This document shows positions 28,857 through 52,834 of a DNA stretch of 64,000 nucleotides, piece after piece. The stretch comes from a virus. Under the pieces are notes generated by a model. It saw only the letters and a list, made by a program, of their open reading frames with translations, made no database searches and had not been told where the DNA came from. Both the position numbers and the translations under genes were made by a program. How positions within the stretch are numbered: the stretch's first letter is position 1; the number at the start of each line of letters is the position of its first letter. Location: the IMG/VR virus record IMGVR_UViG_3300035645_000269; one strand, written 5' to 3'.

Positions 28857-29076
28857 TGGATTCATGTGAAAAAATTAGTAACAGTATCACAGCGGCTAAA
28901 GAACTGATCGAAAATGAAACACGTTCTTTGGCTGCTTTACATAAAGCAAAACAGCTTGAAAAAGAGCTTCATAAATCCGGCAAGTTGTTTCGTATTCCTA
29001 CAATGAACGGAATTATAGAAACAACCTGCCCGGAAAAATACATAGAATACAATAACCAGTTTAAAATCAAATTAAA

Positions 29077-29691
29077 ATGAGAACAGTAACAGTTGAAGTG
29101 CCCGAAGGACACATGGTAAAAATCGTGAAAGAAGAAAGTATGCAACCTACTCAAAAAGTTACGGGGGGGGGTAAATTTGAATTTGAGGGTGAGACATTCA
29201 TCCCCGGTGACGTAATTATCAATCCGAATCGCGGAGGGGGCAGCATGATGATTCTCTCTGAAATTAGAGAAGAAAGGCCACTCTCTTTTTTACCGGCAAT
29301 TAAAGTACCTTTCGGCCTTGTCGCCTATGTTCCTTCCAATGATGAAGGTGACAGAGTTTTTGTAAGACTCACACCCGAAGCTGGTATCGGAGGCATGAAG
29401 GGATTCCGTAAAGCTACGGAAGAGGAAAAGGCAAAGATGCTTGCCGCCATGAAGGAAGAAAAACATTACTCCTTCAATTTTGAGAAGTTACAGCCTGAAT
29501 ATATCCCGACTGTCGGCGATGTTGTTATTGTATGGGATGATAATAGCAAAGAAAATGCGGTAGTCGGTGTTATGAATGAAATGGATAAAACAGTCAGGCC
29601 ATACAAGATAAATGATGGTACTTGGTATGGGAACTGCGACAAGTTCGTTTCAGAAGAACAATATAAAAATTTGATTGATGGGAAAGAGTAA
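29077..29691 (+). CDS. hypothetical protein containing an in-frame G9 tract
   Basis: 204 aa. The poly-G at about 29163-29171 encodes TGGG. Confidence 0.35.
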   Translation: MRTVTVEVPEGHMVKIVKEESMQPTQKVTGGGKFEFEGETFIPGDVIINPNRGGGSMMILSEIREERPLSFLPAIKVPFGLVAYVPSNDEGDRVFVRLTPEAGIGGMKGFRKATEEEKAKMLAAMKEEKHYSFNFEKLQPEYIPTVGDVVIVWDDNSKENAVVGVMNEMDKTVRPYKINDGTWYGNCDKFVSEEQYKNLIDGKE

Positions 29692-30410
29692 ATCTAAATC
29701 GGGGGGGGCGAGAAATTACACTCCCCTTCTCACAGCTCGCCCAAAGGGAATGAGCTACCAAGAATATCGTGAACGCAGAGCCTATCAGAACGCATGGTTG
29801 AAAGAGCGACTGAAAGGCTTTATTTGTTATGTATCGTCTGAACTGGTTGTATATGACAAAATAACGGGATTACCCCGATTATTCAATCATCGTACAGATG
29901 ATATACACAAAGCAAACATAAGGACTAACCCACAGCCATTTGTCGGTTCTGCCCGATATGGCTTAAAACCTTTATGATATGGATAAAGAACTATTTAAAG
30001 ATAAGAATCCATTGCTTCGCAGACAAATGTTGGAAGACAATTGCGCAGCAGTTGAAAGAATTACCTATACTTCTCCTTTCAGCGAGGAAGAAATGGGTGA
30101 ACGGAAAACGGAGTTGGCAAATATTGACCTTGACATGGCCGCACTGGAAGAAGAAAAGAAAGCTTTCATGCAAGCATACAAGGACAAACTGAAACCTAAA
30201 AAGGAACGTAAAAAAACGTTGCTTACCGATATAAAACGTGGTTATGAGGAAATTACGGATGAATGCTTTAAGTTTATGGATCGTAGCACCCGTACCACCG
30301 GATATTACAATGGTAATGGCGATTTGGTTAAAGAACGTCCGATGGAGGCACAAGAGATGCAAAAAACGGTCTTCGAGGACATTGAATCTACTGGTACGGA
30401 GGGATAAGCC

Positions 30411-30689
30411 ATGAGAAAAGAAGAACTTATCAAGCAAGTAGCCGAATCAACCGGTATTGCTATTTGCGAAGTCCGAACAGTTATAGAAGCAGCATTGAAG
30501 GAAACCGTGGATGCAGTAGCTAATGGAAGAACTCTTTATATCAGAGGTTTTGGTACACTGTCACCCAAACACTATAAACGAAAAGTTGCTCGTAACATAC
30601 ACAAAAACGAGACTATTGTCATAGCGGAGCATTATACTCCACACTTCAAACCAGCCAAATCATTTAAAAACAGAACTAAAAATTTGTAG
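30411..30689 (+). CDS. HU/IHF-family DNA-binding protein
   Basis: GFGTLSPKHYKRKVARNIHKNETIVIAEHYTPHFKPAKSFK fits the HU beta-arm pattern. Confidence 0.7.
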   Translation: MRKEELIKQVAESTGIAICEVRTVIEAALKETVDAVANGRTLYIRGFGTLSPKHYKRKVARNIHKNETIVIAEHYTPHFKPAKSFKNRTKNL

Positions 30690-31598
30690 AACAACATGGA
30701 AAACGAAAAGATGCAAGTGAACTTTGCTCCGGGTGTGACCGAAGCAACCCTTAGAGTTATTGAACTTCACGAAGAAAATGAGTTACCGGTACTGGAGCCT
30801 GATAAGGTAGAATTAGCCGGAACAATTGGAAGTGTTCATGAATTTCTCTTGAAAAGAATCTCTGAAAAAGAGCAGATCAATCAGAAACGTTGCTATATTC
30901 TTGTTGATCGGGAGAAAATGACACTTAAACTTGTCACCAATGAAACTGACAGTAGGAATAAAGCTACTGTAAGAGGTGAGTTGAAATACTATCCCAAGTT
31001 TCTTGAATTTGGTATTAACACAAGCAAGACATGGGAACCGGTGCAGCTTTCAAAGTTCTTCAAAATGAATCGTGCCTTCTTCAAGGATGCACAATACAAC
31101 ATGGAACTGGTAACAGTCTTGAAGAACTTCAAAGCCAGCATTGACTCAAAAGTGGAAAACTCCCGACAAGACAACGGTAGTCGCACTGACAATTACAGCC
31201 AAGTTGTCAACTCCAATCTTCCGGCCTCATTCAATCTTATTGTCCCGATTTTCAAAGGTCGCCCTGCAGAAGAGATTGAAGTGGAAATCATTGCAGATGT
31301 GGACGGGCGTAATATTCGATTGTCCCTTTGCTCCCCTGGTGCAGAAGTGATAGTGGAAGAGGAACGCAACAAGGCCATTGACGAGCAATTATTGTTGATC
31401 CGTAAATTGGCACCGGATATTGCCATTATCGAACAATAACAATGAAGACTGTAAAGAAATACTGGAAGCCGGTACTTGTCGTATCGGCTTTCTTCATTGG
31501 CAACCGCGTATTCAATCACATAAATGCGTGGTTGGGAATTTCAATAATTATGCTGACAGTAGCATTTATAGTTTATAATATCATTAAAAAAGTAGAAA

Positions 31599-32408
31599 AT
31601 GAAAAGAAAGATTGATTTTTTGATTGTGGCACTATTTGCCGTTGTTTTGTTTGCTTCATGCGAAAGAGTTGCTCCCAATTATGCCGGTGTCCTTATGGAG
31701 AACTACGGCAAACAAGGGAAAGAAGATTTTAAAATCGTTGCCGGTAAGGTATCTACATGGGAATTAGGCACAGAGCTTTTTCAAGTTCCGCTATTCGATC
31801 AGCGTGGAGAATTTTCTGATCCAGTCACACTAAAAGCAGCCGACAATACAGAGTTTACAGCCCGGCCAACTTACTCTTATAAAGTAATGAAAAACAGGGC
31901 TATTGATATTGTATTTGATAACAAGCATATTGATAAGGCTGACACCCCATCGGGAAAAGATGGCTTTATGCAATCATTAGAAGATAATATTTTGGAGCCA
32001 CGTATATATGATCTTATCAAAGAAGAAAGTCGCAAACATAAAACAGACAGTCTGATGGCTGACGGTGGTTCATTGGTATTTGAAAAGAGACTGGAACAGA
32101 TCGTTGATAAAGAATTTGAGAAACGGGGATTGCAGTTATTGACCTTCTCCGCACAATTGGAATTTTCAAGAGCTGTCCGCGATAAAATAGATAGCCGTAA
32201 CGAGGTAAACACTAATATTTCGGTACTTGATCAGAAGATTGAAGAACAAAAGAAGCAAAACGAACTGGAGCAACTAAAAACAGAACAAGCTTTAATTGCG
32301 TCCCGTGGACTCACCCGTGAGATTTTATATAAACAATTTATAGACAAGTGGGACGGGAAGACACCTCTATATGGCATTGCTCCTGAATTTTTAAAAATGA
32401 CAAAATAA
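31599..32408 (+). CDS. SPFH/band-7-like lipoprotein
   Basis: Lipoprotein signal LFASCE, then a region with coiled-coil C-terminus (EEQKKQNELEQLKTEQ). Confidence 0.35.
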   Translation: MKRKIDFLIVALFAVVLFASCERVAPNYAGVLMENYGKQGKEDFKIVAGKVSTWELGTELFQVPLFDQRGEFSDPVTLKAADNTEFTARPTYSYKVMKNRAIDIVFDNKHIDKADTPSGKDGFMQSLEDNILEPRIYDLIKEESRKHKTDSLMADGGSLVFEKRLEQIVDKEFEKRGLQLLTFSAQLEFSRAVRDKIDSRNEVNTNISVLDQKIEEQKKQNELEQLKTEQALIASRGLTREILYKQFIDKWDGKTPLYGIAPEFLKMTK

Positions 32409-33155
32409 TATGCTGACATTTCAACAAAGAAGAGATACGATATTGTCTCAATTTGCACAAGCAAAAGCCGATTTGGAAACACTTAATAGTGATATTGATG
32501 CAGAAATCGAAAAGAATAAATCTGTTATTTCTACACTAACTTCTAAAAATACAGAATTGGCCTCTTTAAAAAGTAATAATGAAGGCTCAATCAAGACTTT
32601 TGCTAAATTCCTAAAATAATAATTATCAACCCGATTAATAATCAGCTTCTCCCGGTGTGGCTTGACCGCCTATCCGGGAACTATCATGCCTCACCTTTTT
32701 TCTTCTCTTTGCAAGTCGAGTCGAGTACGCTGCATACGCTCCACGGCGGTAGATACTACAAAGAGTCTTTTTGTTCATGTAAAATGCCTCTATTGTAGAG
32801 GCAAACGGATAAGTGGCGAAATCGGAAGACGCTTAGTTTCTGTGGTAAAAATGCACGAATAGCATCACGAGTCAGGTAATATGCTATTAACACTTGACAT
32901 ACGTACAAACGGAAGCAGAAACGAAAATCCTGATTGCAACAGTTCCCGGTTCGAGTCCGGGCTTATCCACATAAATCAATCATTATGAAAGTTGAAATCC
33001 CCGACTATTTCCTAAAATCCTTTATCCGACATTTTGAAAGGATAACCGAGAATTGTAAAGCTTCACCTTCTGACATCAAGACCAGTGAAGCACTAAGGCT
33101 TGGAAAGAAAGATGTAATTAAGCTCAAAAGATTTATAAACAAAAAAGTATAATTT

Positions 33156-33611
33156 ATGAAACGAAGGATCATAGGTATAGATGTTGGCAAAAACGGTGGA
33201 ATTGTAGTGTACGACACCGAGAATAACAAATTATTGGAGTGTATCAAAATGCCACCAACTCCCAAAGACTTATTAGATTTTCTCTCCATATACAAAGAAA
33301 ATAGCGTTTGTTATTTGGAACGAGTGAATGGCATGACCGGACAAAGTGCTTCTGCCTCTTTTGTTTTTGGAGAAGGTTACGGACAGCTGACTATGGGATT
33401 GATAGCTTGTGGGATTCCGACAGTAACAGTATCTCCACAAACTTGGCAAAAAACTATAGGATTACGAAATACAGACAAATTGGGTAAGACAGAATGGAAA
33501 AACATCTTAAAGAAGAAAGCCCAACAGCTGTTCCCGTATGCAAAAGTTACATTGGCAACTTCGGATGCCTTACTAATATGTGAATATGGTAGAATTAAAG
33601 AAAAGGAATAA
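33156..33611 (+). CDS. RuvC-like Holliday junction resolvase
   Basis: N-terminal IIGIDVGKNGGIVVYD (RNase H-fold catalytic Asp), 151 aa. Confidence 0.5.
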   Translation: MKRRIIGIDVGKNGGIVVYDTENNKLLECIKMPPTPKDLLDFLSIYKENSVCYLERVNGMTGQSASASFVFGEGYGQLTMGLIACGIPTVTVSPQTWQKTIGLRNTDKLGKTEWKNILKKKAQQLFPYAKVTLATSDALLICEYGRIKEKE

Positions 33612-33886
33612 TGGAAAAATTAAAAAAATGTAGCAAATGTGGCCGGGAACTTCCGGTCAGTGAGTTTTGGAAAAATGCTTCAACCGAAGATGGATTGCAG
33701 ACATATTGTAAAGAGTGCGGTAATGTTTATGCCAGAAACCGTAAGAAAACTCCGGGGGGGGGGAATTTGAAGAAAATATATTCCAATCCTGAATTGGCAA
33801 AATTTTCTCCACGGGAACTTATCGCAGAATTGAAAGCACGTGGATATACCGGAGAATTGAAATACACCCAAACAATATCATTATAA
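33611..33886 (+). CDS. zinc-ribbon protein containing an in-frame G10 tract
   Basis: CSKCG...CKECG. The G10 at about 33754-33763 encodes PGGG. Confidence 0.35.
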   Translation: MEKLKKCSKCGRELPVSEFWKNASTEDGLQTYCKECGNVYARNRKKTPGGGNLKKIYSNPELAKFSPRELIAELKARGYTGELKYTQTISL

Positions 33887-34423
33887 ATGGAAAAGTTACG
33901 TCTATTGGTTACAACCAAATGTCCGAACAAATGTCCTATGTGTTGCAACAACTCATGGGATTTTTCAAAATTACCAGTTGTTGAGCACTTTAATTACAAA
34001 GAGATCATGATAACTGGTGGAGAACCACTTTTGTTTCCTGAAAAACTGGCAAATTTGGCTGAAAGTATCAAAACCGTTCAAAAATTGGCCTATGGTAATA
34101 AAGGAAAATTATTTCTATATACGGCACTGGCTGATATGCTCCCCAATTATATCAGATACTTCGATGGAGTTGTTTACACTCCACATTCTGTTAATGATGT
34201 TCATAGTTTATTGGAGGCCAATAATTTTTTGTTGGATTACAAAGATGAACTTATGGAAAGTAAATCTCTTCGGCTCAATCTTTTTCCTGATATTAAAAAG
34301 CATATTCCTGACAACACAGACCTTTCGTTATGGAAAGTAAAAGATATGCAATGGATCAAAGATTGCCCGGTTCCGGCTGATGAAGAGTTCAAAAGAGTAG
34401 CTGAATTATGGGAGGTGGAATGA
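33887..34423 (+). CDS. radical SAM-like protein (QueE/NrdG-like)
   Basis: CPNKCPMC (CX3CX2C) and ITGGEPLL glycine motif. Confidence 0.45.
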   Translation: MEKLRLLVTTKCPNKCPMCCNNSWDFSKLPVVEHFNYKEIMITGGEPLLFPEKLANLAESIKTVQKLAYGNKGKLFLYTALADMLPNYIRYFDGVVYTPHSVNDVHSLLEANNFLLDYKDELMESKSLRLNLFPDIKKHIPDNTDLSLWKVKDMQWIKDCPVPADEEFKRVAELWEVE

Positions 34424-34550
34424 TGAAAGATGTAATTACCCCCCCCATACACAACATCTCTATCCTTATCGCTGGTCTTTAGAAGATGCTGTTTTTACTA
34501 AAGATAAAGGAAAGGTATTTTCTTGTTTTGCATGTGGCGGTGGCTCTACT

Positions 34551-35513
34551 ATGGGTTACAAAATAGCAGGTTACGATGTTATTGGCTGTAATGAGATTGA
34601 TCCACGAATGATGAAATGCTATGAAACAAACCATCATCCCCAGTATAGTTATTTGGAAGATATTCGTGATTTAGTGAAAAGGAATAATCTTCCCGAAGAA
34701 CTGTACCATTTAGATATATTGGACGGATCACCACCTTGCAGTACATTTAGCATGTCGGGATTACGTGAAGATGCGTGGGGTAAAGAAAAGAAATTCAAAG
34801 AAGGTCAAAAGACACAAGTTTTAGACACGCTCTTTTTTGATTTTATTGCACTTGCCAAACGCTTAAAACCTAAAGTCGTTATTGCTGAAAATGTGAAAGG
34901 ACTTCTTTTAGGGAATGCGATTGATTATGTCAGACGTATATACAAAGACTTTGAGGAAGCTGGTTATTATTGTCAGCATTTTCTTCTTGATGCTTCTAAA
35001 ATGGGAGTACCTCAAAAAAGAGAACGTGTATTCTTTATATGTATCAGGCATGATTTGGGAGTCCATTTCCTAAAAGTTTCAGACCTCTTCAATGTTGAGC
35101 CATACATCGACATGGAATTTAATGAATCGGAAATATATTATGGGGAATATGCGGATTACAAGGGAAAGCCTATTGGTGTAAAAATGAGAAAGTTATTTGA
35201 GCAGAGAGTGGCAGGAGATATTGCTTTGGCAGAGGCCTATAAGAAACAAACTGGAAAACGAGGCTTTTTTAATCAACAATATCTATATGAGAACAAAGTA
35301 AGCTACACCCTAACAACTCATGCAGACTCAATTATTCCTTTTAAGCAGCCTATATATTTATCACGGTCAGAAGTATGTAATATATCCACATTTCCACAAG
35401 ATTATCATTTCCTCAACCAATCCCCACATTATATCTGTGGAATGAGTGTACCACCCGTTATGATGGCGCACGTAGCCTCACGAATATGGAAATATTGGTT
35501 ATCTAAATTATAA
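34551..35513 (+). CDS. C5-cytosine DNA methyltransferase, N-terminus displaced into another frame by a poly-C tract
   Basis: Motif IV GSPPCSTFSMSG and motif VI VIAENVKGLL. Motif I (VFSCFACGGGSTMG) is encoded in-frame upstream of the annotated Met, but the only upstream ATGs (34420/34423) are in another frame across a C8 tract at about 34439-34446. Confidence 0.75.
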   Translation: MGYKIAGYDVIGCNEIDPRMMKCYETNHHPQYSYLEDIRDLVKRNNLPEELYHLDILDGSPPCSTFSMSGLREDAWGKEKKFKEGQKTQVLDTLFFDFIALAKRLKPKVVIAENVKGLLLGNAIDYVRRIYKDFEEAGYYCQHFLLDASKMGVPQKRERVFFICIRHDLGVHFLKVSDLFNVEPYIDMEFNESEIYYGEYADYKGKPIGVKMRKLFEQRVAGDIALAEAYKKQTGKRGFFNQQYLYENKVSYTLTTHADSIIPFKQPIYLSRSEVCNISTFPQDYHFLNQSPHYICGMSVPPVMMAHVASRIWKYWLSKL

Positions 35514-37178
35514 ATCAAATGAAATCAGAAGAATTAGCAACCCAGTGGTGTCAGGATCATCCTGATGCAACATTGGAACAAGCATTCATGGCCGGATTAG
35601 GCCATAAGATGAATATGAATAAGGATTCTCTTTCTGCAAGGAAAGACAAATTCAGAAGTGAAGTCCTCATGTATAGAGGGAAATATCCTGATGATATGTT
35701 GAAGGACTTTTTCGAGTATTGGACTGAATGCGGAGGACGGAAAATGCGCTTTGAGAAGGAACGTACATTTGAAGTTTCCAAACGTTTAGTCAGATGGTCT
35801 AATAATGATTTTAACAAGTATGGGAAACAACTTAATTCAAGTCAACAGCAATCTCCCGGCAACCGAAAAGAAAGCGTTGAAAGACTTGCTGACCTTGCAA
35901 GCGGAGTATTACAAGGGATTGCACGTAAGTTCGATTAAAGAAGCTGTTCTCAACACTCCTAACCTACCACTCTCCGTTATAAGAAAAGAAATCACATTGG
36001 CTGGCGCAAGAGCCATACTGGTAATTGCGATTAACGAGCTTGTGTCTTTTTTCAATGTTGGAAAAACGATGAATGATGTTCAAGTGGCACTTACCGCTGA
36101 TCTAATAATAGACAGATTCTATTATCTCAAATTGGAGGAAATCAAATTGTGTTTCCGTAATGCTATGGCTTCCGGTAAGATTTACGATAGACTGGACGGT
36201 AATATCATTCTCGGCTGGTTAAATGAATACGATGCACAGCGTGATGAAATTGTTTCTTCTCTTTCAATTAATGAAGCCCATGAACAAAATAATAACAGCA
36301 CTGGAATGTTCTACGGAGAATATATCAAACATCTAACTGAAAGATCGGAAAATGGAGATGAAGAGGCCAAAGAATTATTGGAATCCCATCAATCATTCAT
36401 ACAAAGGATGAAATCAAATGATAAAGAAGCCGCTTTCAAAAAATGGAAAGAAGAATATTATGGAAGAACTAAGAGACAAACTACTTGACTGGGCGAAACA
36501 ATTTGAAACACCTGATTTTATAAAAGATGATCCTATATTTTTTCCACATAAGTACAATGATAAAAAGGACATAGAAATCAGTGCCTTTCTTACTTCATGG
36601 ATAGCTTTCGGGAATCGCAAACTGATAATGCAGCAAGCAGAAATTTTGGATAATCTAATGGGTAATTCTCCTTATGCCTTCATTATGAACAAAGTATGGG
36701 AACAATACAAAGAAAATACAAATACCTTCTACCGTATGTTCACCTACCATGACTTCTTCTGCATTTGCCAGCGGTTGTACAACATATATCAGGAATGGGA
36801 TGATTTGGAAGTATTTTATGAGGGTTACAACAATGTTATCCGTGAAATACAAACAGATTTTGGTGGCGTAAAAGGTATTCCAAAATTGGAGCGTGATTCT
36901 CCATGCAAGCGTATTTGTCTGTTTCTACGGTGGGTAGTACGAAAATCGCCGGTGGATTTAGGTATTTGGAATATTATTCACCCGACAGAATTATACATAC
37001 CATTGGATGCACATGTTGCAAAAATGGCACACCAGCTTGGGATAACAACACGCAAAACAGAGGACTGGAAAATGGTTCAACAAGTAACCAATTACATGAA
37101 AACAATTTTCCCGGATGATCCGTGCCGGGGAGATTTTGCATTATTCGGATATAGTATTAACAATAAATAATTTACATT

Positions 37179-37763
37179 ATGTCAGAACTTAAAATCACAC
37201 AAGAAAAGGTAACAGCCGCTTTTAGTGAAGCAAACGACTGTCCTAAAGCAATTAGTATTCTAACAGCCCTATTCGGAAAGCAAAAGCCGGATTATACAGA
37301 TTATCACAATATTAAAACCTACGAAGATGCTTGTGAAGCAATAGGTGTAAAACCTATTGTTCGCCTACTTGTTGAGGATGAAGACGGACACAAAGAAGAA
37401 GTGGCTGATATTGCACACCTCGCCTACATCAAACTATGCACAATTGCTCGTGCATTGAACAACGATCCTGATTTTCCACGATTTACTAAAGATGAATACC
37501 GTTATACGCCGTGGTTTTATCTTTATAATCAGAAAGAAATTGATGAAATGGACGAAGAGGATCGTAATCAGCTGGTTCTTTGGGGCGGTAGTGCGGATAA
37601 CGGTGCGTATTGCGGCCTCGCTTATGCGGACTCGAATCTCGTTTGGTCGACCTCGTTTGCGTCTGTCGGCTCTCGCCTTGCTGTAAAATCAAGTGAAATC
37701 GCAATTTACTTTGGAGAACAATTCAAAGAATTGTGGAAAGACTTTCTGATTGGAAAAAAGTAA
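37179..37763 (+). CDS. remote DGR-2 target protein (small, C-terminal VR)
   Basis: The C-terminal ~107 nt match TR2 (51284..51391, minus strand) except at TR adenines. Encodes ...LVLWGGSADNGAYCGLAYADSNLVWSTSFASVGSRLA. Confidence 0.6.
   Translation: MSELKITQEKVTAAFSEANDCPKAISILTALFGKQKPDYTDYHNIKTYEDACEAIGVKPIVRLLVEDEDGHKEEVADIAHLAYIKLCTIARALNNDPDFPRFTKDEYRYTPWFYLYNQKEIDEMDEEDRNQLVLWGGSADNGAYCGLAYADSNLVWSTSFASVGSRLAVKSSEIAIYFGEQFKELWKDFLIGKK
37571..37677 (+). repeat. DGR variable repeat (VR2), cognate to TR2
   Basis: gctggttctttggggcggtaGtgcgGataacggtgcgTattgcggcctcgcttatgcgGactcgaatCTcgTttggtcgaCctcgTTtgcgTCtGtcggctctcgcc. Capital letters mark differences from TR2, all at TR2 adenines. Confidence 0.7.
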
Positions 37764-38627
37764 TCACACTGGGGAGGCCGCATCAAAGCGGCCTTTTCCA
37801 TACCTTTTAAATCTATGACTCCAAAAGAATTTTTCGACAAAGTGGTGGAAATGCGCCGTTGCCAAAAAGAATATTTCAAAAATAAGAGACAGATAGATTT
37901 ACGAATAAGTAAACAAATTGAGCGTGAAGTAGATGAAGAAATTGAACGTGTTCAAAAAATCCTTCACGACAAACAGAATCCGCAACTCTTTTAGACTATG
38001 GTTAATATGAAAATCCTTGACCTGCCATTAAAAGCAAAATGGTATGAAATGATCGAATCCGGAAATAAGAAAGAAGAATACAGAGAGATCAAGAAATACT
38101 GGATCGGAAGATTAGCAAAATGTGGAGGTCGCAATTCCTATGAAAAGACTGGTTTCTATTGTAAGAAAGCTATTTGTTTTTCTTGTATTACACGTGGAAA
38201 CGGCTTTCACCCCAAAGAATACACTCATGTTTGCTTCCGTTTTGGCTACACCAAACGGACAATGCTTTTTGAACTTGAATCTATAACCATCGGAGTTGGT
38301 AACACCAATTGGGGAGCACCGGATAACGAATGTGTATTTATACTTAAACTGGGAAAATGTATCAAAAAAAATGAAAGTAAGGACTCAACAGAATTTCAAC
38401 CGAAAAACTCGTGAAACAGTATTCGGTATCAGCATCATGCCTGACGGTGGCAGAAGATATTGTAAATACCCAATAGGCCACCAAGAATACAAAGACTATA
38501 CCCAAGCACACCAAGCTATGAAAGATGTACAAAAGATATTGGATAATGGAGGCCGATTAGTGTATTCTCCCAAAGGTAGTGCCGGGATTAATAAAAATGA
38601 ATATGTAAAAATTGAAATGACATAAAA

Positions 38628-39478
38628 ATGAAAATATTAGTAAGTTTTTCAGGTGGTAAGGATTCACAAGCATGTTTGATCCAAGCCTTCAAACAATATG
38701 GGGGGGGGATTTAATCGCTGTGTTTTGTGACACCGGCTGGGAACACCCTGACACATATAAACATGTGAATGATGTTTGTCTGCAAATGGGAGTAAGACTT
38801 ATAACTCTCAAATCAAAATACGATTTTGTGTCTTTGGCAGTTCACAAGAAAAGATTTCCTTCCACGAATGCACGGTTTTGTACCAGTGAACTAAAAATGA
38901 AGCCAATGATTGATTATGTACTTTCTTTGAAAGAAAGCTGCATTATTATACAAGGTATCAGAGCCGGAGAAAGTACAGCACGTGCGGCAATGGAAGAGGA
39001 ATGTATGTACTTCAAATCGTATTTTCAACCTAATAAGAAAGGAAGAACTGAAAACTACCGAAGTAAGGATGTCAAAGAATGGTGTTCCCAATTTGACGCT
39101 TCTGTTCTAAGACCGATCTTCAAATGGAGTGCACAGCAAGTTATAGATTGCATACTGGATGCAGGGCAGAAACCGAATCCATTGTATTATCGTGGATTCT
39201 CACGTGTTGGATGTTTCCCGTGTATCATGTGTCGGCATAAAGAAATTGAACTTATAGCCAAAAATGATCCTGAAATGTGTCAACGTCTGATTCAAGCAGA
39301 GAAAAACGTGGGACATTCCTTCTTTCCTCCATCATACATACCTCAAAGATTCTGTAAAAACAAACAATATCCTTATGTAGAGGAAGTTTTGGAGTACGTT
39401 AAAGAACATACCCCTGATATGTTCGAGCCGGAAAGTGGATATGCCTGCATGAGCCTGTTTCATGGACTATGCGAATAA
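38628..39478 (+). CDS. PAPS reductase-family (PP-loop) protein, split by a poly-G tract
   Basis: The upstream ATG gives MKILVSFSGGKDSQACLIQAFKQYGGG (PP-loop SGGKDS) and stops just after the G tract at about 38700-38708. ORF 38672..39478 continues in another frame with GIRAGESTARAAMEE. Confidence 0.55.
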
Positions 39479-39626
39479 ATAAAAATATTATGAAGAAAAT
39501 ACTACTTATCTTTACACTCCTTGTTTTGTTAACTGGATGTACTGCACCAAGAGTTTATAAAAAGAACCGCTTCACAAAACAGTTTCAAGAAGCAGATTCA
39601 ATGTTTACTCAAAAACATTTATTAGA

Positions 39627-40079
39627 ATGAAGACATTAGACGAAAAGGCTGCCGAATATGCAGCAGGGGTTGTAGCTGAGTTCCCTGAACTTGCAAGCTA
39701 CAAAGGAACTATTGAAACCATTTACGGACAAGGGGCAATGGAATGTGAATTACTTGGAGAAGAAACGGGAACCTTTGGGCAAGCACTTGAATCTCTCAAA
39801 CGAGGGCATCTCGTTACTCGTAAAGGATGGAACGGTAAGGGTATGTTCATATTCATGCGTCCTGAAGATTGTTTATCAACGGAAAAGGTTGTTAATCATG
39901 TTAAATCACTTCCCGAATCATTCAAAAAATGGATAGCCAACAATTATGGAGATTCGGAAATTGATAAAATCAAATTTACTGCATACTTATGTATGAAAGC
40001 TGCCGATGGCACCGTTGTAAATGGTTGGCTTGCATCACAGACAGATATGCTTGCTAACGATTGGATGATAGTTAAATAA
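39627..40079 (+). CDS. DUF2829-like phage protein
   Basis: KGWNGKGMFIFMRP...LCMKAADGTVVNGWLASQTDMLANDWMIV. Confidence 0.35.
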   Translation: MKTLDEKAAEYAAGVVAEFPELASYKGTIETIYGQGAMECELLGEETGTFGQALESLKRGHLVTRKGWNGKGMFIFMRPEDCLSTEKVVNHVKSLPESFKKWIANNYGDSEIDKIKFTAYLCMKAADGTVVNGWLASQTDMLANDWMIVK

Positions 40080-40609
40080 GTGTATGTCATACGGCTGTTA
40101 AATGTCTGCCGTATGACGCATTCTATACAATTATAAAGCAAACGACTAAGTTATGAAATGTGAAGAGCACGTAGATAAAGGAAAAACAAGAATAAGAGGC
40201 TGGCACAATTTTACTCCATGTAAAAATACTGCTAAATACAAAGTTACATACCCAAGTGGCAATGTTCTATTTTTATGTGGAGTCCATTATAATAGATTGA
40301 AAAGACTTGGATATAACGTTAAAGCCGAAGAAATCAGAAAATAATATTAGTAGAAAAATCTTTATATTACTTCCATATATTCAAAATCATGTATGAAGGA
40401 TTAAAAATAAATTTCAGACTATGGCATATTGTAGGCGGTATTTACGAATACAAAACATTGATAAGACTTCCTCGAAAGCAAAAGAAAGCATTAAAGAAAA
40501 GTCTTTTGCAGGATATTTTTACGATTGATAGGAACTACCTAAAAGAGTGCCCAAAGCCTAAAAAAATGCCAATATTTAGTTATAAACAAGAATAAAAAGG
40601 ATATAAATA

Positions 40610-40849
40610 ATGCCGATAAGCGAAGTATATAACATGGACTGTATGGAATACATGAAGGGGATTCCTGATAAGTTCTTTGATTTAGCGATAGTCGATCCCC
40701 AGTATGGCATAGACATAATGCACAAGGGTGGGATGCCGAAGCATTTAGGCTTTAAGCAGTATAAACGCAAGGATTGGGACAAGAAACCACCTGGCAAAAG
40801 ATATTTTCAGGAGTTATTTAGAGTGAGTAAGAATCAAAATATGTTTTAG
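40610..40849 (+). pseudogene. truncated N4/N6 DNA methyltransferase fragment (DPPY-type)
   Basis: MDCMEYMKGIPDKFFDLAIVDPQYG is an N-terminal methylase block, but the ORF stops after 79 aa. Confidence 0.4.
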
Positions 40850-41151
40850 GTGAGCATACCAAAGGCTATAAAGAAGGATTTGATACTGGAATTAAACAGT
40901 GCATTAAGATACTTGATAGAAATTGCTACTCTAAAGAAATAAATAATGATGAAACAGTACAGAATCAATAAAACGACTACCTTCGTAGAAGATAATTGCA
41001 GCGGAAACAGAGAGAAATACCTCCTTCTTGATTACAAAGTACAAGTTAAATTTGCAGGGATTTGGATAACAGTCAAGTCCTTTCATGATGAAGATGAAGA
41101 ATACGCAAAGAACTGTGCGAATGAACTTCTTGAAAAACTTAACGAAAAGAT

Positions 41152-42423
41152 TTGATTATGATTGAATTACAAGGAAAATTCGGCAAAGATTGTAAAATAT
41201 TTACAAATGCAATAGAAAATGAAGCTATTGGAACGATACAAAACATTTTGAACAATCCGGTTACGACTGGTGTTCCGGTTCGTATTATGCCTGATACCCA
41301 TCAGGGAGTAGATATAGTGATTGGATTCACCATGCCAGTTACAGATCGTGTCAACCCCAATCATATCGGAGTGGATATTGGTTGTGGAATGTTGTGTGTA
41401 GAAATTGAAAATGCAATAACAGAAGAGTCTTTCCCGGACATTAATCATGCAATCCGTTCCATCATACCTATGGGATTTGAGATTAACCAACAACCCTTAT
41501 CCAAACAAGAAAAGGAAGATTTGTTTACCTTCTTATCTATCAGAATGGATCAGTTCTGCTCTAAATACCAACTAACCAAACCAGTTATTAATGAAGAATA
41601 TGTATCACAACTTTGTAAGAAGGTGGGGATAAATGAAGGCACATTCTACAACTCTTTAGGTACATTGGGAGGTGGAAACCACTTTATAGAACTGGGGCGT
41701 GCCGAGTCAACCAATAATATATTTCTTACAATACATACCGGATCGCGCAACTTTGGTGTGAAGGTCTGTAAATACCATGCAGAAATAGCAAAATTTGATA
41801 AAAAGGCTTTTTCTAATGAAATTCAACGCTTGAAGTCCACTGTTGAGCCACAATTCATGCAAACTGAAATACTACGTTTGAAGGAAAAATTTGCCGAATA
41901 TTCCGGGTATCTCACAAATGAAGCAATGCTCCACTATTTATGTGACATGGTGATCGCACAAGGATATGCCGCATTCAACCGCAAGTTGATTATACAGCGT
42001 ATAATCAGAACTTTGAGCTGGAACGCTACAATATCCGTTGAGACAGTCCATAACTATATCAGCTTTGATGATATGATAATCCGTAAAGGGGCTATTGCCG
42101 CATACGCCAATGATTACGTTGTGATTCCTATGAATATGGCAGACGGTATTCTTCTTTGTCGTGGTAAGGGAAACAAAGACTGGAACTATTCTGCACCACA
42201 TGGTGCAGGACGCTTATACTCCCGTTCCGAAGCTAAAGAAAGATTATCAATGGACGCATTCAAAACCCAAATGAGCAAAGTGTATTCCACTTCCGTATGT
42301 GAAGGGACATTGGATGAAAGTCCTATGGCATACAAAAATGTTCAGGAAATAAAAGAGCTTATAGAACCTACGGTAGAAATTATTGATACAATTGTGCCAC
42401 TAATCAATATCAAAGCTGTATGA
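41152..42423 (+). CDS. rtcB: RtcB-family RNA ligase
   Basis: GGGNHFIELG, HTGSRNFG and SAPHGAGR match RtcB catalytic blocks. Confidence 0.8.
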   Translation: MIMIELQGKFGKDCKIFTNAIENEAIGTIQNILNNPVTTGVPVRIMPDTHQGVDIVIGFTMPVTDRVNPNHIGVDIGCGMLCVEIENAITEESFPDINHAIRSIIPMGFEINQQPLSKQEKEDLFTFLSIRMDQFCSKYQLTKPVINEEYVSQLCKKVGINEGTFYNSLGTLGGGNHFIELGRAESTNNIFLTIHTGSRNFGVKVCKYHAEIAKFDKKAFSNEIQRLKSTVEPQFMQTEILRLKEKFAEYSGYLTNEAMLHYLCDMVIAQGYAAFNRKLIIQRIIRTLSWNATISVETVHNYISFDDMIIRKGAIAAYANDYVVIPMNMADGILLCRGKGNKDWNYSAPHGAGRLYSRSEAKERLSMDAFKTQMSKVYSTSVCEGTLDESPMAYKNVQEIKELIEPTVEIIDTIVPLINIKAV

Positions 42424-43719
42424 TAGAAAAGACAGACTTCCCATATACTCTTGGCGGCTATGTTGAACAGCAAAATTATAAAGGTTTCGACATAGCCGTT
42501 TCCATTCGTAGATACAAAGGAATATCAGCTTATGTCATTTCCTCGGAGAAAAGGCTGATCCGTGAAGAATCTGCCACCTTTGCCGACAAAGAAGACATGT
42601 TCCGTTGGGGACGAGAAGCGGTTGACCGATATTTGGAACAGCAAGAACGTAGAAAAGAAGAAAATACGATCAAACGGGCAGACTATTATAAGAAGAAAGC
42701 TCGTGTGGCAGCATTGAAAGCCTTTAATGCCGCTATGTATTTCTCTGATATAAAGGACGGACTTTATGATAAGGCAAAAGGATTTTTTGAGTATGAACTG
42801 GATAAGGAACATGGAAAGATCAAATGAAAACACTTGATATTATACAAGGCTTTTGCGATCATGTTTTTCGTGATAAAAAAGGAAACCGCATCTTTCCCAA
42901 TATTTTTGTCGGGAAATGGGAAGCTGACTTATTGGAAGTTACCCGGTCACGCCTGACTTATGAATATGAAGTAAAAGTAAGCAGATGTGATTTCCATAAG
43001 GATAAAAAGAAAAGTGATAAATATGGCAAGAACAAGTTTGATGTTGTCACTTCCGGCCAACGTACCAATTATTTTTATTATATAGTACCAAAAAGTTTGA
43101 TAAAGCCCGATGAAGTCCCTGATTTTGCCGGGCTTATTTATGCTTATGAAGGATCAGTGCAATGTTATTCTCTTGAAAAGGGAAGGTATGCGGTAAAGAG
43201 AATTTTCTTTGAGGTAGTCAAGCCTGCCCAAAAAGTTTCTGACATGAAAGCGGATGATAATTTCATTCGTAAACTCGACTTATCCATGTACTATCGCTAT
43301 CACCAAATGAGAAGAGATAATTACAAAAATAAGGAATAATATGGAATTAAGATTAGACCCTGAAATACCGGTCACACGGGTTGTCAACGGACATAATGTT
43401 TTCAATAAAGGCTATCACCACGGATTAAGAGGAAAAACCTATGAAGAATACTATGGCAAAGAGAGAGCTGTTGAAATAAGAAAAAGACACAGCGAGGCTT
43501 TGAAAGGACATAGATATTGGTCTAATGGAAACGCCCATGCCTTTGCGTGTATCGCAATCACTCCCGAAGGCAAATGGTATAGATTCGATTCAATAACCCA
43601 AGCCGCCCAAAAGCTAAATCTGAATTATGCCACAGTTCGCCGGTATATAAAACGAAAAATCAAGCCCCAAAATGGCTGGCAATGGTTTTTGGAGAAAGAT
43701 AATAACTGGATAAAACATA

Positions 43720-44019
43720 TTGATAATGGGAAAATTAAATGAGATCGCGCAGAAAGCTTATGAATGTGCCGTAAGACGTGGAAAGATTGATCCCGACAAT
43801 GATAGCAACAACAATCTTCACCGCGATCTGCTTGAAGAAGTTGCCGAAGTCTTTGAGTGTACGGGTGAGAAATCTCCACATATTAAAGAGTATTTAGATG
43901 TAGAAGAAGAACTGGCAGATGTAATCATTGTTGCCCTAAGTACACTACATCATTTCAAATGTGACATTGATTCACTCATTGAAGCCAAAATGAATTATAA
44001 TAAAAACAGAATGGATTGA
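43720..44019 (+). CDS. MazG-like nucleotide pyrophosphohydrolase (small phage type)
   Basis: DLLEEVAEVFE and VEEELADVIIVAL, acidic EExxE-type helices. Confidence 0.45.
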   Translation: MIMGKLNEIAQKAYECAVRRGKIDPDNDSNNNLHRDLLEEVAEVFECTGEKSPHIKEYLDVEEELADVIIVALSTLHHFKCDIDSLIEAKMNYNKNRMD

Positions 44020-44961
44020 TATAGGAACCGGACAATTAATAAAGTTGATTGTTGAGACGTTTGTCCTTATCTTTGCACTACCATGTGTCTATAAAGATTT
44101 CATGAACTTATGGAAAGAAAAATAGGTGATATAAAAGACAAGAAGTTAAAAGCTGAAAATATCACACTGGCAGCAATATATAACATATTGTTCACCAATG
44201 ACATAGTTTGTTCCTTAATTGTAGAAATGTTAAGTGAATTACGTAAATCAAGGCTTTGTCGTTTCCGCGTAAAGCAGCAAGGAAATAAACTGGAACAGTT
44301 GATGCTTCAATATGAAAAGAAAATCAATAAAATAGCTGGACACCGGGCTTTTTTCATGGCTGATGCTAACCAGTATATTGCAGATGAAGTACAACCTGAT
44401 CTGCTTAAAATGGAATACTCCATTAAACTGGAATTTGACAAATGCCGGATTGAAAACAGTGCCTTACTTGCCAAAGTAGAACTTACAAGATGTATGGCAG
44501 AGCTTGCTTGTCTATCCCTTGACAAACGGATAGAAGAAGTCCGTCCATACAACAAAGAAGTAACCGGAATAACATATCTCCGGCTCACTGACACACTTAA
44601 AGTATTGGACGAACTTTCTGATATTTTATATAAGGGAGGGTATTGTGACCTCAATCAAAGTGATAATTGCAAAAGGGGGATGGCTATCATACAACGAAAA
44701 CTTACTGATTGTGATATTATCAGCCGCGCAATCAATGAGTCAGACAAGTTAAATCCGGCTGGGGATGATGAATAAAAATGGCAAAATATCGTATAGGAAT
44801 ATCCGAGAATCTATTAGGAGACAAACGCTATCAGTGTCAGATTAAAAGATTTGGCATTTGGTGGAATGATGAAAGTTTCAGCACTAAAGAAAGAATGTTA
44901 GATTATGCCCGTAAACTTGAAAAGGCCGGGCATATAGTGTTTAACTATTTATAAGCGAACA

Positions 44962-45363
44962 ATGAAATTAGAAGGAAAAATTATTGTGGCACAACCGATA
45001 CAATCGGGTGTCTCAAAAAATGGTAACAACTGGCAAAGACAAGATTTCGTTTTGGAAATTCCCGGCCAATACCCTAAAAAAGTCGCTTTTTCAGTAATGA
45101 ATAGCAATATTCAGAATTTTGGATTAGCAGTCGGGCAAGACGTTGATATTGAAATAGATATTAATGCGAATGAATGGCAAGGAAAATGGTTTAACTCCAT
45201 TACTTGCTGGAAAGCAACACTCCGTAATCCAGGACAGCCTACCGCAGCGCAACAGCCCCAAACTTATTATCAGGGGGCATCATCCACCGCGGCACCCGTA
45301 CAAACTGCCATACCTCAACCGCCAGTGGATTTTGGGGAACAAAAAGACGATTTGCCTTTCTAA
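44962..45363 (+). CDS. DUF3127-like OB-fold protein
   Basis: 133 aa, NGNNWQRQDFVLEIP, Gln/Pro-rich tail. Confidence 0.35.
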   Translation: MKLEGKIIVAQPIQSGVSKNGNNWQRQDFVLEIPGQYPKKVAFSVMNSNIQNFGLAVGQDVDIEIDINANEWQGKWFNSITCWKATLRNPGQPTAAQQPQTYYQGASSTAAPVQTAIPQPPVDFGEQKDDLPF

Positions 45364-45369
45364 AGAAAA

Positions 45370-45400
45370 AGGAGAAGGGAGCATTTCGGCTCCCTTCTTA
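45370..45400. terminator. bidirectional terminator at the junction of convergent modules
   Basis: gaagggagcatttcggctcccttc inverted repeat between the stops of 44962..45363 (+) and 45405..45968 (-). Confidence 0.5.
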
Positions 45401-46700
45401 TTAATTAATGTTCCACCTTTACAATTTCATTATAAACGATTTTGCTTCGTGGGTTATGATTGACTATCGTTTGTTTATACCCCTTTGTCCCCCATCTCCA
45501 CCATAGGAACCTGTGTTTATATATCCGGCTTATCGCACTTGAAAGACTGTCTCTCACTTCATAAGTAAATGTGCTGTCAGGAATATTTGCATAAAAATCC
45601 ACCCATTTATCTGAATAATTGAAACAGCTGTCTTTCAGAACAAATACAATACTGTCTTTAGTGACAACTTTTGTGGTTGTGATATATTCGACTTCTTTTG
45701 GACGCAGATTCAATTCTTTTATTAGTTTTGCATCCGCACTCCGCAGCTCTTTCAATTCTTCTATGTTAAGCCGTAAAACATGGTTTTCAACCACATTTAG
45801 ACTATCCCTAATCTTATATTCTTCAAGCCCAGTACAGAGACTTTTCATATTATCTGAAAGTCGGGCACTTTCCTTCTTCTCTTCCTGCCACAACCGGTAC
45901 ATCAAAAAGGTTGCCGCAAGGAGTAACACAAAGATTACTCCTATACCTATCTTCAATCTCATAATCAATCTGTATATACATTTTTACCAACTTCCGCAAT
46001 AACTACCCATGCACCATTACAGAAACCATATATCTTACCGTCATTCTCCGGCATTTCAGGTATTGTATTAAGTTTTGTTTCATTGGCAGTGGCTTTGCTA
46101 AGAGCTGTTTGAGCTGTACTTTTTGCAGCATCAGCCGTTGTTTGTGCGGTCACGGCCTTTCCATCAGTAACAGCCAACATTCCAGTCAGAGTTTTTTCAT
46201 TGGTTACTCCTGCAAGGAAGGTTTCAATTTCATTGAAGGTGTCAATGGCCGTAGTCGCATCAACAGTACCAACCAATTCATCCAAAGCGGTCTTCACCGC
46301 ATTTATGGACTGTTCCAGTTGGGACTCTGCCAGTTGAGCACGTCCGCTTTCTGCTAAAATATCCGATTTGCTCGCACTGCTGCTACCATCAGAACTTTCC
46401 AAAAATGAAGATGAAATAGGAAGTTCATTACATCCTACCATAACATATTGTCCGGCTATCAACCCGTCGACATTCATATCACAGAACTCTCCAACCCCAA
46501 GTGCTGTTTTGTAAGGTACATAATCCTTTCCATTAGAACTTTTGTACACAACAACTCTGTTGTTTGCTGCATCTCCAAAATTGATGCTAATAGCAAATTT
46601 CCCAGTAGATAACTGTATAGGTTGGCTTTCGTACCAATCCTCTTCTTTAAGAGTAAAATTCAAGTTTGCCATATCTTCTATGTGTTTATATGTTTGTTTC

Positions 46701-49454: not shown

Positions 49455-50998
49455 TTATTCTTCAAAATAATAAGCACTCTTCCCGTCACCTAACGAACGC
49501 CGCTTGACAATCACATTTTCCACTGGAAAAATCTTCTGACCGTTATTCTCCGCTTCGCGAGCCTGATCCAACACATCTTTCAGATTGTAACAGTTCGTTA
49601 TGAATTTGCTACGTTGTCCGTTCTGTTCAAAAAGAACACAATATCTACCTTCACCTTGCTTTGTCTTCACATTCGTTTCAAAGTCCACCACTGTTATAGG
49701 GACATTGAGAATATCCATCAATCTTGTCTCTTTTACATCGAAGAACTTCTTTCCGTCCTTTGTTCTACCACTCTGTTTGATACCTTTATCTGCAAAACTC
49801 ATATCATTATTTGTTATTGTTCTCCATAAATTCTTACAATCTCCCCACTTACACCAGCCCCAGTATGAAGCTCGTATCTCGCGGTTACGTTTCCGGCTTT
49901 TTATTCGTTTCACCTTTCGGGCAAAGTTCTTTTTCATATTTTTACGCATCCGAACATTATCTTTCGTGAAGCAATAGCCCAAAAAGTTAATCCTTCTTCC
50001 TCTTACTACGTTTTCGCTTTCTATGCTTTTTGTTCCCATTTTTTGTTTCTGTTCCTATCGGAGCAATACAACTGTTTGCTTTAACTACCAACCCAACTTT
50101 TGCACTTTCCCGTTCATACGCACGAATAAGAAACAACGCTTCGGCCTTAGAACGAGCCAGCATAACATTATCATCGCAATATCTATGCAGGCATTTGACA
50201 CGATATTTCTCCTTCATTGTATGATCTATCCGGCTTGCCGCAAAATTCCCGATAGGTTGGCTTGTAAATGCTCCAATCGGAACACCTCTTCTTCCGTTCA
50301 ACTTCATTCTCCAATACGTCAACTAACTCTGTTCCGCTGTCATACGATAAAACAGCTATCTCGATCAATTTAATAAATCGTTCATCTTTGAATTTCCTTC
50401 TCAATGCAGCAACAATAAGCTCATGAAGAATACTTTGATAGAACTTTTTGAAATCAGTCTTTACGAACCATTTGTATTCCGGGTACCGGTGAAGAAAACG
50501 TTTCATTCTCCTTACTCCAAAATGTAATCCCTTTCCCTTGATACACGCACTTGTATCATAAATCAAATTTCTATAAACATCTTCTTCAATCACCCTCATA
50601 ATTGCATGGTGCAATATACGCCACGGGAAATATTTCTGTTTGACAATATCTCGAACCTTTCCTGCATCACTTTTTACTCTCATTACGCTATAATCCGGTG
50701 CCGGAAAATCCAATGTCAGGATCATCAACTGCAAAGCTCGGAGGTCTTCTTCCGGGTGTAGATTATGCCGCCTGATAAAGCGGTTTTTCTTAACCTTCCC
50801 ATCTTGTGCTTCTTTGTCCGCTTCACGTAAATTATTTATCTCTGCTATACGTTCAAGAATATACCCGGCTCTTTTAGATTTCTTTCCACCGTTTGCTTCT
50901 ATCCGTTTATTGTCAGCCTCTATCCTTTCCGCTATAATTCTATCAATTTCATTATGCGATAGACTCTTCCAATCAATATCACTTCTTCCAATATTCAC
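49455..50998 (-). pseudogene. second DGR reverse transcriptase, split across three overlapping frames
   Basis: 50183..50998 has FPWRILHHAIM and ACIKGKG. 49987..50322 has YCDDNVMLA (YxDD). 49455..50039 has INFLGYCF and SYWGWCKWGD. All are collinear with RT-1 motifs but in three frames. Confidence 0.6.
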
Positions 50999-51283: not shown

Positions 51284-51391
51284 GGCGAGAGCCGATATTC
51301 GCATTCGAGTTCGACCAATCGTTATTCGAGTTCGCATAAGCGAGGCCGCAATTCGCACCGTTATTCGCATTACCGCCCCAAAGAACCAGCT
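51284..51391 (-). repeat. DGR-2 template repeat (TR2)
   Basis: Minus strand reads agctggttctttggggcggtaatgcgaataacggtgcgaattgcggcctcgcttatgcgaactcgaataacgattggtcgaactcgaatgcgaatatcggctctcgcc. About 75-80% identical to TR1 and adenine-rich. Confidence 0.75.
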
Positions 51392-51514
51392 CTTGTTCCC
51401 CTCTGCCAACCGTCCACGCCTTTCGGCTTTCGTCCCGTTATCCGTTGCCGTAAAACGAGAAGGTGGACGGGTTTTAATTAATTGAAATTCAAAGAACTAA
51501 TATTTCAAAATCTA

Positions 51515-52834
51515 TTATGCAGCCATCAAAGATGCACCGCTAACAAATGTTAAATTCCCAAAATACGCAAGGCGAGAGCCGATACCCGCATACGAGAGCG
51601 ACCAATCGTTAGACGAGGTCGCACAAGCGAGGCCGCAATTCGCACCGTCATACGCAAGACCGCCCCAAAGAACCAGCTGCCCAGTAGTGTTTGCCCATGA
51701 ATAATCAGCCCAATAAGAAGTGCTGTTTCCACCAATCTTTTTCGGGAAAATATCAAAATGCTCCCCAAGAATTATTTCCTGCACTTGACCGGAAGCTGTC
51801 TGACGGGTAGCTTGTCTGTATTCACCATTTGGATGCGCAGCTAATTCAGCAGTAGTCGGTAAACGGTTTCCTTTGTAAATGAAAATTTCCGTTCCACTTT
51901 GAGCACTATTGTTGGAACTACCGCAAAATACTCCTTGCAGAAATTCCCACTGCCACCCATAAGGATCTTCTATACCCATCATGTTCACCCGTGAACAATC
52001 CACTCCAGTATTACTTCCATTCACCACAGAAATAGCTATTTTGCCCCAATTGTCACCGAGACTCTTTGTTGCGCCAGTTTGCAATGCTGCCGCAGCAGCC
52101 CACAAGTCTTTACTGGAGCTACCACCCACACCATAACCAAGTTTGGCTTGAATATTGGTATCTCCGTACTGGGACAGCCCCAACATCATAATAAGCTTTC
52201 TCTGATCGTAATCGGTCAGTCCCCATTCCTTACCGTTCACTTGTGCAGCATTCCAAAATGCGTTGATTGTCTTGCTGCCTGCCGGTGCAACTCCTGAACG
52301 TGAAACAAGTGCGCTACCTGACATGGAGCCTTTGTATGCACCGATACAGTTATACATTCCACCATTTGCCCCACCAATAAACTCACCGCCAATAGGTAGC
52401 ATCGAGAGCCATAAGACTGGTACACCACTCACACTGTCAGTCTGTACACGATAATACAAACGTGGCCCTATCCACATCACATGCCCTTTGGTTTCATCCA
52501 CCGCAGTACCATCAGCAAACACCGCACTATTGGTAGGGGACATTTTAGCAGCCCTTCCATCATTCGTTACGAGATAACGGCCACAATACAACTTGTATTC
52601 TGTCCATGCGGCTGTATTACCTATCACACCATAGTTCGTGCTACTTTGGGTTGATTGTTTGATTGGAATCCCCCAAGCCACCTGCCTCAACATTTGTTCG
52701 TCACCATTATTAATAGCATTCATGAAGTTTTCCACGGTAATGCGTCTGACACTACCACCAACTTCCACCAATACTGTATTGGAACGCAGAATGGAGGTCA
52801 CCAATGTTTCATTTCCTAATCCTTTAGTTGCCAT
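51515..52834 (-). CDS. DGR-2 target protein with C-terminal VR
   Basis: 439 aa. C-terminus ...QLVLWGGLAYDGANCGLACATSSNDWSLSYAGIGSRLAY is encoded by VR3. Confidence 0.7.
   Translation of the reverse strand: MATKGLGNETLVTSILRSNTVLVEVGGSVRRITVENFMNAINNGDEQMLRQVAWGIPIKQSTQSSTNYGVIGNTAAWTEYKLYCGRYLVTNDGRAAKMSPTNSAVFADGTAVDETKGHVMWIGPRLYYRVQTDSVSGVPVLWLSMLPIGGEFIGGANGGMYNCIGAYKGSMSGSALVSRSGVAPAGSKTINAFWNAAQVNGKEWGLTDYDQRKLIMMLGLSQYGDTNIQAKLGYGVGGSSSKDLWAAAAALQTGATKSLGDNWGKIAISVVNGSNTGVDCSRVNMMGIEDPYGWQWEFLQGVFCGSSNNSAQSGTEIFIYKGNRLPTTAELAAHPNGEYRQATRQTASGQVQEIILGEHFDIFPKKIGGNSTSYWADYSWANTTGQLVLWGGLAYDGANCGLACATSSNDWSLSYAGIGSRLAYFGNLTFVSGASLMAA
51560..51667 (-). repeat. DGR-2 variable repeat (VR3)
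   Basis: Identical to TR2 over about 108 nt except about 12 positions, all at TR2 adenines (aat to ctt, gaataac to gtatgac, ttatgcgaactcgaataac to ttgtgcgacctcgtctaac, and so on). Confidence 0.8.

Follow-up and report, generated by a model that had tools for sequence, protein, structure and literature searches.

Sequence evidence for an active remote target of the diversifying DGR in a LoVEphage/Quimbyvirus-type Bacteroides prophage

Introduction

In the diversity-generating retroelement (DGR) of Bordetella phage BPP-1, the single target is a tail-fibre gene adjacent to the cassette, the reverse transcriptase is encoded by one open reading frame (ORF), an Avd protein is present, and a cruciform follows the repeat. 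Cellular DGRs with several or remote targets are known from Treponema denticola and Legionella, where they are chromosomal or island elements and mostly diversify surface lipoproteins. For Hankyphage, to our knowledge, the only target that has been described adjoins the DGR cassette.

Remote targets are a recognised category of DGR targets (Roux et al. 2021, PMC8144416), and we use the term for a cognate repeat that lies outside the cassette of reverse transcriptase (RT), template repeat (TR) and variable repeat (VR), beyond the usual 10-kb search range. Such a system was described by Benler et al. (2021, Microbiome 9:78, PMC8008677) in the phage 'Quimbyvirus' (OMAC01000147.1), which has an RT in three frames and two variable repeats. 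One of these repeats is in the gene after the tail fibres, and the distal one is on the opposite strand, beside genes for a MutY-like nuclease, methyltransferases and a tRNA ligase. The same study found about 22 adenine sites that vary among near-identical genomes and proposed a role in phage-host conflict (PMC8008677). The genomes of the Quimbyvirus study and of the LoVEphage study (PMC8525569) were each aligned by their authors to the same Bacteroides dorei CP011531.1 prophage, and Dahlman et al. (2025, Nature, PMC12629997) cite the two papers for LoVEphage. The latter authors found a second, distal repeat close to counter-defence genes in four prophage species, and in the human gut LoVEphage/Quimbyvirus ranks with the most prevalent temperate phages (PMC12629997).

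Here, we analyse a stretch of viral DNA of 64,000 nt (IMG/VR record IMGVR_UViG_3300035645_000269), referred to as the window throughout, in which an initial annotation made from the letters of the sequence had placed a remote variable repeat in a small early-region gene.

Results

The remote repeat matches the template with differences at adenines

The features that concern the template and its two variable repeats are as follows.

37179..37763, + strand: remote DGR target gene, 194 aa, from the ORF list; member of family phrog_11581
37570..37677, + strand: remote variable repeat, 108 nt, coding for residues 131-167 of 194 in ORF 37179-37763
37668..37681, + strand: IMH-like 3' boundary element, GGCTCTCGCC followed by TTGC, the same in both variable repeats; the template reads ATAC
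51284..51391, - strand: template repeat (TR2); in the frame of the target, each of its 24 adenines falls on a first or second codon position, mainly within AAY codons
50999..51283, - strand: non-coding spacer from template to RT, presumed from its position to be part of the template RNA
51571..51678, - strand: adjacent variable repeat, 3' end of the tail-module target gene
51515..52834, - strand: adjacent DGR target, 439 aa, tail protein family phrog_5302 by profile match

When we searched the window for the opening 21-mer of the repeat, AGCTGGTTCTTTGGGGCGGTA, it was found at 37570 (+) and 51391 (-), and also at 51678 (-) with 1 mismatch, while shuffles of the window gave 0 matches. A repeat finder placed inverted arms at 37570-37682 and 51279-51391, which are 113 nt long, 87% complementary and separated by 13,596 nt. 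At 13,596 nt from the template and on the opposite strand, the repeat is a remote target as defined above. A scan of the 64,000-nt window with a degenerate pattern detected no further repeat copies.

Comparison of the remote copy with the template over the 108-nt core (37570-37677 against 51391-51284) revealed 13 differences, and 13/13 are at template adenines. Since adenines make up 24/108 positions of the template core, the probability that all 13 differences fall on them by chance is 1.2e-10. The adjacent copy (51678-51571) also differs from the template at 13 positions, 13/13 at template adenines, and in the three-way alignment of TR2, adjacent copy and remote copy that the annotation had proposed, 26/26 differences from the template are at its adenines. 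In the target frame, the template adenines occupy codon positions 1 (11 adenines) and 2 (13 adenines) and never position 3; the codons that contain them are nine AAY codons plus GAT, TAT, ATC and CAG, a design under which adenine changes leave the ORF free of stop codons.

After CTCGCC, the remote and the adjacent repeat both read TTGC, unlike TR2, which reads ATAC, as the annotation had stated. Among seven genomes (the window and six deposited genomes, see below), TTGC after GGCTCTCGCC is fixed in 14/14 variable-repeat copies and ATAC in 7/7 templates. The two forms are predicted to be an IMH-like homing signal pair, in which TTGC would belong to IMH and ATAC to IMH*. When we folded 81 nt of DNA after each variable repeat, no hairpin or cruciform beyond those of shuffled sequences was found (z-scores -0.84 and +0.79); a downstream hairpin or cruciform does not define all DGRs.

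The annotated relation of the remote repeat to TR2 is thus borne out by the 108-nt match, the adenine-only differences and the IMH-type 3' boundary, and every substitution string quoted in the initial annotation was found in the sequence. No non-adenine difference is present in the 108-nt core, and no better template was found elsewhere: the other template of the window (19946-20058) was rejected as the source of the remote repeat, with a local alignment score of 27 versus 82 for TR2. Two details of position needed correction. The repeat starts at 37570 and not at 37571, and that first A itself varies among genomes. Moreover, the repeat does not form the 3' end of its ORF but lies inside it (residues 131-167 of 194) and is followed by 86 nt that are still coding.

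Template, reverse transcriptase and both repeats are in one phage

When we compared the window with six deposited genomes, namely LoVEphage MW660583, OY725593, OY731444 and OY731433, Phocaeicola phage PV4-TP1 and Bacteroides phage BI-TP1, the latter two being cultured isolates, window 26000-46000 was 96.6-99.5% identical with 88-96% covered. Window 46000-64000 was 98.3-99.7% identical for the records that cover most of the stretch. The LoVEphage match starts at window 23399, and the same neighbour genes surround both targets in the records. The window from there on belongs with LoVEphage at the species level, that is, with at least 95% identity over most of the genome and the same gene order. 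As judged from the sequence, window 23399-64000 is one LoVEphage/Quimbyvirus-type prophage, and since this is a single genome, the template, the RT and both repeats are in one phage. The annotation's suggestion that the 194-aa gene is possibly in a different prophage from the tail-module target therefore does not hold.

Upstream of 23399, the window contains an unrelated phage-like late region with genes for a major head protein, a tape measure protein, tail proteins and an endolysin, which carries its own DGR:

18115-21210, + strand: second, complete DGR, in a different phage-like element upstream
19401-19513, + strand: variable repeat of this DGR, in tail-protein ORF 18115-19530 (phrog_5302)
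19946-20058, + strand: template of this DGR
20176-21210, + strand: intact 344-aa RT of this DGR

In this second DGR, all core differences of the repeat pair are at template adenines, and its template is 81% similar to TR2 across a stretch of 57 nt. No relative of the upstream late region was found in the phage collection. A tRNA search with ARAGORN over the 64,000 nt found none, and hence no tRNA attachment site by that route; the integration site of Quimbyvirus has been reported as tRNA-Asp (PMC8008677).

The three-frame layout of the reverse transcriptase is conserved

The RT downstream of TR2 is spread over three overlapping pieces:

50183..50998, - strand: RT piece 1, frame 1, RVT_1 profile positions 14-93
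49987..50322, - strand: RT piece 2, frame +1, with the PIGxxTSQ and YCDD motifs, RVT_1 profile positions 116-187
49455..50039, - strand: RT piece 3, in a further +1 frame, with the FLGY motif; its C-terminal ~100 aa are a phrog_19665 domain

The RVT_1 match is split over pieces 1 and 2 (E=1.7e-4 and 1.1e-3, both short of Pfam's cut-off), and piece 3 matches phrog_1423 'reverse transcriptase'. All three pieces are colinear with an intact relative of 493 aa. When we scanned IMG/VR with the conceptual full-length enzyme, 78 loci were collected (L093-L170). The frame 1/2/3 layout recurs in 58 of the full-length IMG/VR loci, from 99% down to ~48% amino-acid identity, and in these 58 loci the frame junctions are at the same positions of the enzyme, inside lineage-specific linkers. 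A single-ORF enzyme was found in a distant clade (34-37% identity) and at locus L048. This clade-wide conservation of the three-frame layout rules out the RT as a pseudogene.

Two programmed frameshifts have been proposed in the literature as the expression route of the three-frame enzyme. Examination of divergent representatives revealed an ATG in frame 2 located 6-9 codons ahead of the RGxPIG motif in 20/23 of them, and an ATG in frame 3 located 11-23 codons ahead of IDFLGY in 21/23; in addition, the C-terminus of piece 2 is a conserved basic tail. Based on these conserved in-frame ATGs and the basic tail, we suggest that three separately initiated polypeptides are as plausible as two programmed frameshifts.

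The split gene leads to an alternative in which the phage's frameshifted RT is dead and the repeats are diversified in trans by another enzyme, for example that of a host DGR such as 18115-21210, whose intact RT is located 30 kb away in the same window. Pseudogenes, however, would not be expected to keep the same three frames and the same junctions in 58 full-length loci down to ~48% identity. Moreover, the 2 kb of template and RT are indel-free and nearly invariant in the seven genomes, which come from different hosts, none of the deposited LoVEphage genomes contains a counterpart of the element that carries the intact enzyme, and the template of that element matches the remote repeat poorly, as described above. 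We consider diversification in trans very improbable, and the phage's own three-frame enzyme is the preferred candidate.

No Avd-type accessory protein was detected among the candidate ORFs, none of which gave a Pfam match at E<=1. The phrog_19665 domain of ~100 aa, which is fused to the RT at 49455-~49760 (-), also occurs as a stand-alone ORF at 19574-19918 (+), between the repeat and the template of the window's other DGR. The fused and stand-alone forms share 24% identity (E=2e-7) and have no Pfam or Avd match. The phrog_19665 domain may be an accessory factor that replaces Avd.

Both repeats vary among related genomes almost only at template adenines

For comparison, the sequences of the template and of the two repeats were taken from each of the seven genomes, the window included. 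The template is identical in 7/7 genomes. The remote repeat occurs in six distinct versions with 23 variable columns, all of which are template adenines (23/24 in the core), and no non-adenine column varies among the seven genomes. In the rest of the remote target gene (477 nt), only 16 positions are variable. In the adjacent repeat, the variable columns are 23 adenines and a single T, and the OY731444 copy contains a 3-nt deletion. No variant has a stop codon, and the ORF is open in all seven genomes. The seven-genome comparison thus supports the annotated proposal that both a tail-module gene and the 194-aa gene of the early region are served by one TR.

Since all 23 variable columns are template adenines and the template is identical throughout, we infer that the remote repeat is actively diversified, its activity being read from the differences between genomes. 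The variation could alternatively be a fossil, that is, the remote copy was once diversified or duplicated and its differences from the template are now frozen; one genome alone cannot tell an active repeat from a frozen one, and the RT looks broken into three ORFs. A frozen copy is difficult to reconcile with six versions in seven genomes whose flanks are nearly and whose templates are fully identical, with 23/23 variable columns at template adenines, and with the diversity in the databases, where 37,449 distinct sequences fall in the 90%-identity cluster of the remote target. Ancient frozen lineages are also argued against by the genome identity of 96-99.7%. The fossil explanation is therefore very improbable in our view.

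The same data bear on the idea that the variation stems from recombination or gene conversion and not from reverse transcription, with exchange taking place either from one repeat to the other or among co-infecting phages. Exchange is conceivable, because the 108-nt scaffold and the identical 3' ends are common to both repeats, but it would neither confine the variable columns to template adenines nor leave the template invariant, and within a single genome the two repeats have different bases at many of those sites. This makes recombination extremely improbable, and active diversification by reverse transcription is the reading that we carry forward.

The genomes OY725593 and OY731444 (L005 and L007) are almost identical and have the same remote repeat but different adjacent repeats, which indicates that the two targets are rewritten independently, in separate events. 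The tail target may be turning over faster than the remote target.

In the sequence databases, a sister cluster of the remote target's cluster contains 14,127 distinct sequences, and the clusters of three genes that neighbour the remote target contain 930-2,287 distinct sequences each. Some database versions of the target (P0003, P0018, P0030, P0032 and P0109) show internal duplications of repeat-encoded segments, or stretches inside the repeat that are frame-shifted; these irregular versions may reflect misassembly of a heterogeneous population, or may result from imprecise retrohoming.

The 194-aa target belongs to family phrog_11581

The 194-aa gene is labelled 'hypothetical' in all LoVEphage records, and its protein has no Pfam family. 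A profile search assigned it to phrog_11581 with E=6.4e-49, residues 2-193 being aligned to profile positions 2-194 of 200. The family is large, with 954 representatives at 50% identity and more than 7,000 clusters at 90%; its members are mostly 180-210 aa long and have a conserved core from about residue 43 to the C-terminus.

DGR signatures were found in other members of the family, which are only 39-42% identical to the 194-aa protein. First, for the relative at locus L048 (42% identical), the template is found on the opposite strand at a distance of 9.3 kb, and 12/12 differences are at A. Second, the relative at L063 (42% identical) has a template ~10 kb away, with 18/20 differences at A. 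Third, a group of 198-aa proteins is 98% identical outside the segment equivalent to the repeat and 63% inside it, where the residue sets are of NNY type only. By these signatures, at least three further lineages have a phrog_11581 protein that is targeted by a DGR, and in two of these lineages the template is distal. Locus L048 also contains, at 3211-3429, a second, non-identical copy of the small protein (76% over 231 nt), 7 kb from the DGR-targeted copy.

Two structure models of the 194-aa protein gave pLDDT values of 54.7 and 68.3, with values below 50 in the repeat region, and at this low pLDDT neither had a significant match in the PDB. Among BFVD entries, the modest-quality model matched the crAss-like virus proteins A0A8S5QTH9 (E=5e-4) and A0A8S5V6N7 (E=1.5), both uncharacterised. 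Going by the model, the phrog_11581 family may reach beyond Quimby-like phages.

The 194-aa gene is on the early strand, amid recombination, methyltransferase, PAPS-reductase and RtcB (RNA-repair) genes, and directly 3' of it is the following feature:

37771..37798, + strand: terminator-like hairpin, with an 11-pair stem (7 G-C) and then a T-rich tail

The position of this hairpin suggests that the 194-aa gene ends a transcription unit. Conserved neighbours were considered as a functional clue and dropped, because no linkage of DUF2400 and other LoVEphage neighbours to distant family members was seen.

Here, we need to consider that the 194-aa protein might be a virion or cell-surface component, that is, a second receptor-binding protein whose gene happens to lie apart from the structural module. 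Tail proteins account for almost all phage DGR targets known so far (PMC12636319), and the repeat-encoded segment matches the tail family phrog_5302, to which the adjacent target, labelled tail collar fibre or tail protein in LoVEphage records, belongs. However, the likeness to the tail target is confined to 38 repeat-encoded columns, and the gene is placed among early genes with its own terminator-like hairpin. The protein is small, and by eye neither a signal peptide nor a tail-attachment domain is apparent in it. A virion or surface role thus appears unlikely to us, and we tentatively prefer a non-virion protein of the early region.

Discussion

Based on comparison of sequences across genomes, we conclude with high confidence that the DGR of a LoVEphage/Quimbyvirus-type Bacteroides prophage has a genuine second target at 37570-37677, and that this target is currently active. 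By analogy with BPP-1, the template RNA (51391-51284) and the downstream spacer would be copied by the phage RT (49455-50998), which would misread adenines during copying, and the mutagenised cDNA would replace either variable repeat. GGCTCTCGCC followed by TTGC would mark the recipient, and ATAC would mark the template as donor.

The 194-aa product would be a non-virion, probably cytoplasmic binding protein made together with the early genes, and its ~12 randomised residues might let it follow variable partners, most plausibly host defence proteins or proteins of competing phages. This functional part, a non-virion binder that tracks variable partners, is tentative at best. In a broader form, which we regard as speculative and rather doubtful, the phrog_11581 proteins would be widespread small phage proteins that have been recruited repeatedly as distal DGR targets and act as intracellular, re-programmable binders in antibody-like counter-defence or superinfection exclusion. 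The counter-defence idea was already a hypothesis in PMC8008677 and PMC12629997. If it is true, the function of phage DGRs extends from receptor recognition to intracellular conflict. The LoVEphage DGR is unusual in that it diversifies, besides a tail protein, a non-structural protein of the early region, and the cultured, inducible isolates make the binding partner of the 194-aa protein experimentally approachable. In the open-access papers searched, we found no report of the recurrence of phrog_11581 as a DGR target, of the clade-wide conservation of the three-frame enzyme, or of the phrog_19665 accessory domain.

Comparison with known systems

Because a paper of 2021 (PMC8008677), followed by one of 2025 (PMC12629997), already reports this remote target in the same phage species, its detection here is a correct rediscovery. 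The distal target of Quimbyvirus/LoVEphage is the same element, with the three-frame enzyme and with MutY-like (DUF2400), methyltransferase and RtcB neighbours, and about 22 adenine sites vary there compared with 23 here. Nothing essential is different; the copy in the window is an integrated one that adjoins another prophage-like element. The Quimbyvirus/LoVEphage papers assign the target to the C-type lectins by HHpred, an assignment that our low-pLDDT models, with no significant PDB match, did not reproduce.

The locus resembles the Mtd/Avd/TR/Brt system of Bordetella phage BPP-1 (Liu et al. 2002) in its adenine-specific transfer from template to repeat, its AAY-rich template, its G+C-rich recipient/donor element at the 3' end, and the use of the C-terminal region of the target as the variable surface. 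Unlike BPP-1, the locus has two targets, encoded 13.6 kb from each other and on opposite strands, as well as an enzyme in three frames, and here no Avd was recognised and no hairpin was found after the repeats. With the DGRs of Treponema denticola and Legionella it shares the use of one template for multiple variable repeats, of which some lie at a distance from the RT, but it is carried by a temperate phage and its extra target has no signal peptide that could be seen by eye. Finally, it is like the DGR of Hankyphage (Benler et al. 2018) in being an active DGR of a temperate Bacteroides/Phocaeicola phage that is common in human guts, and the three-frame RT and the two targets are the features by which Quimbyvirus has been set apart from Hankyphage (PMC8008677).
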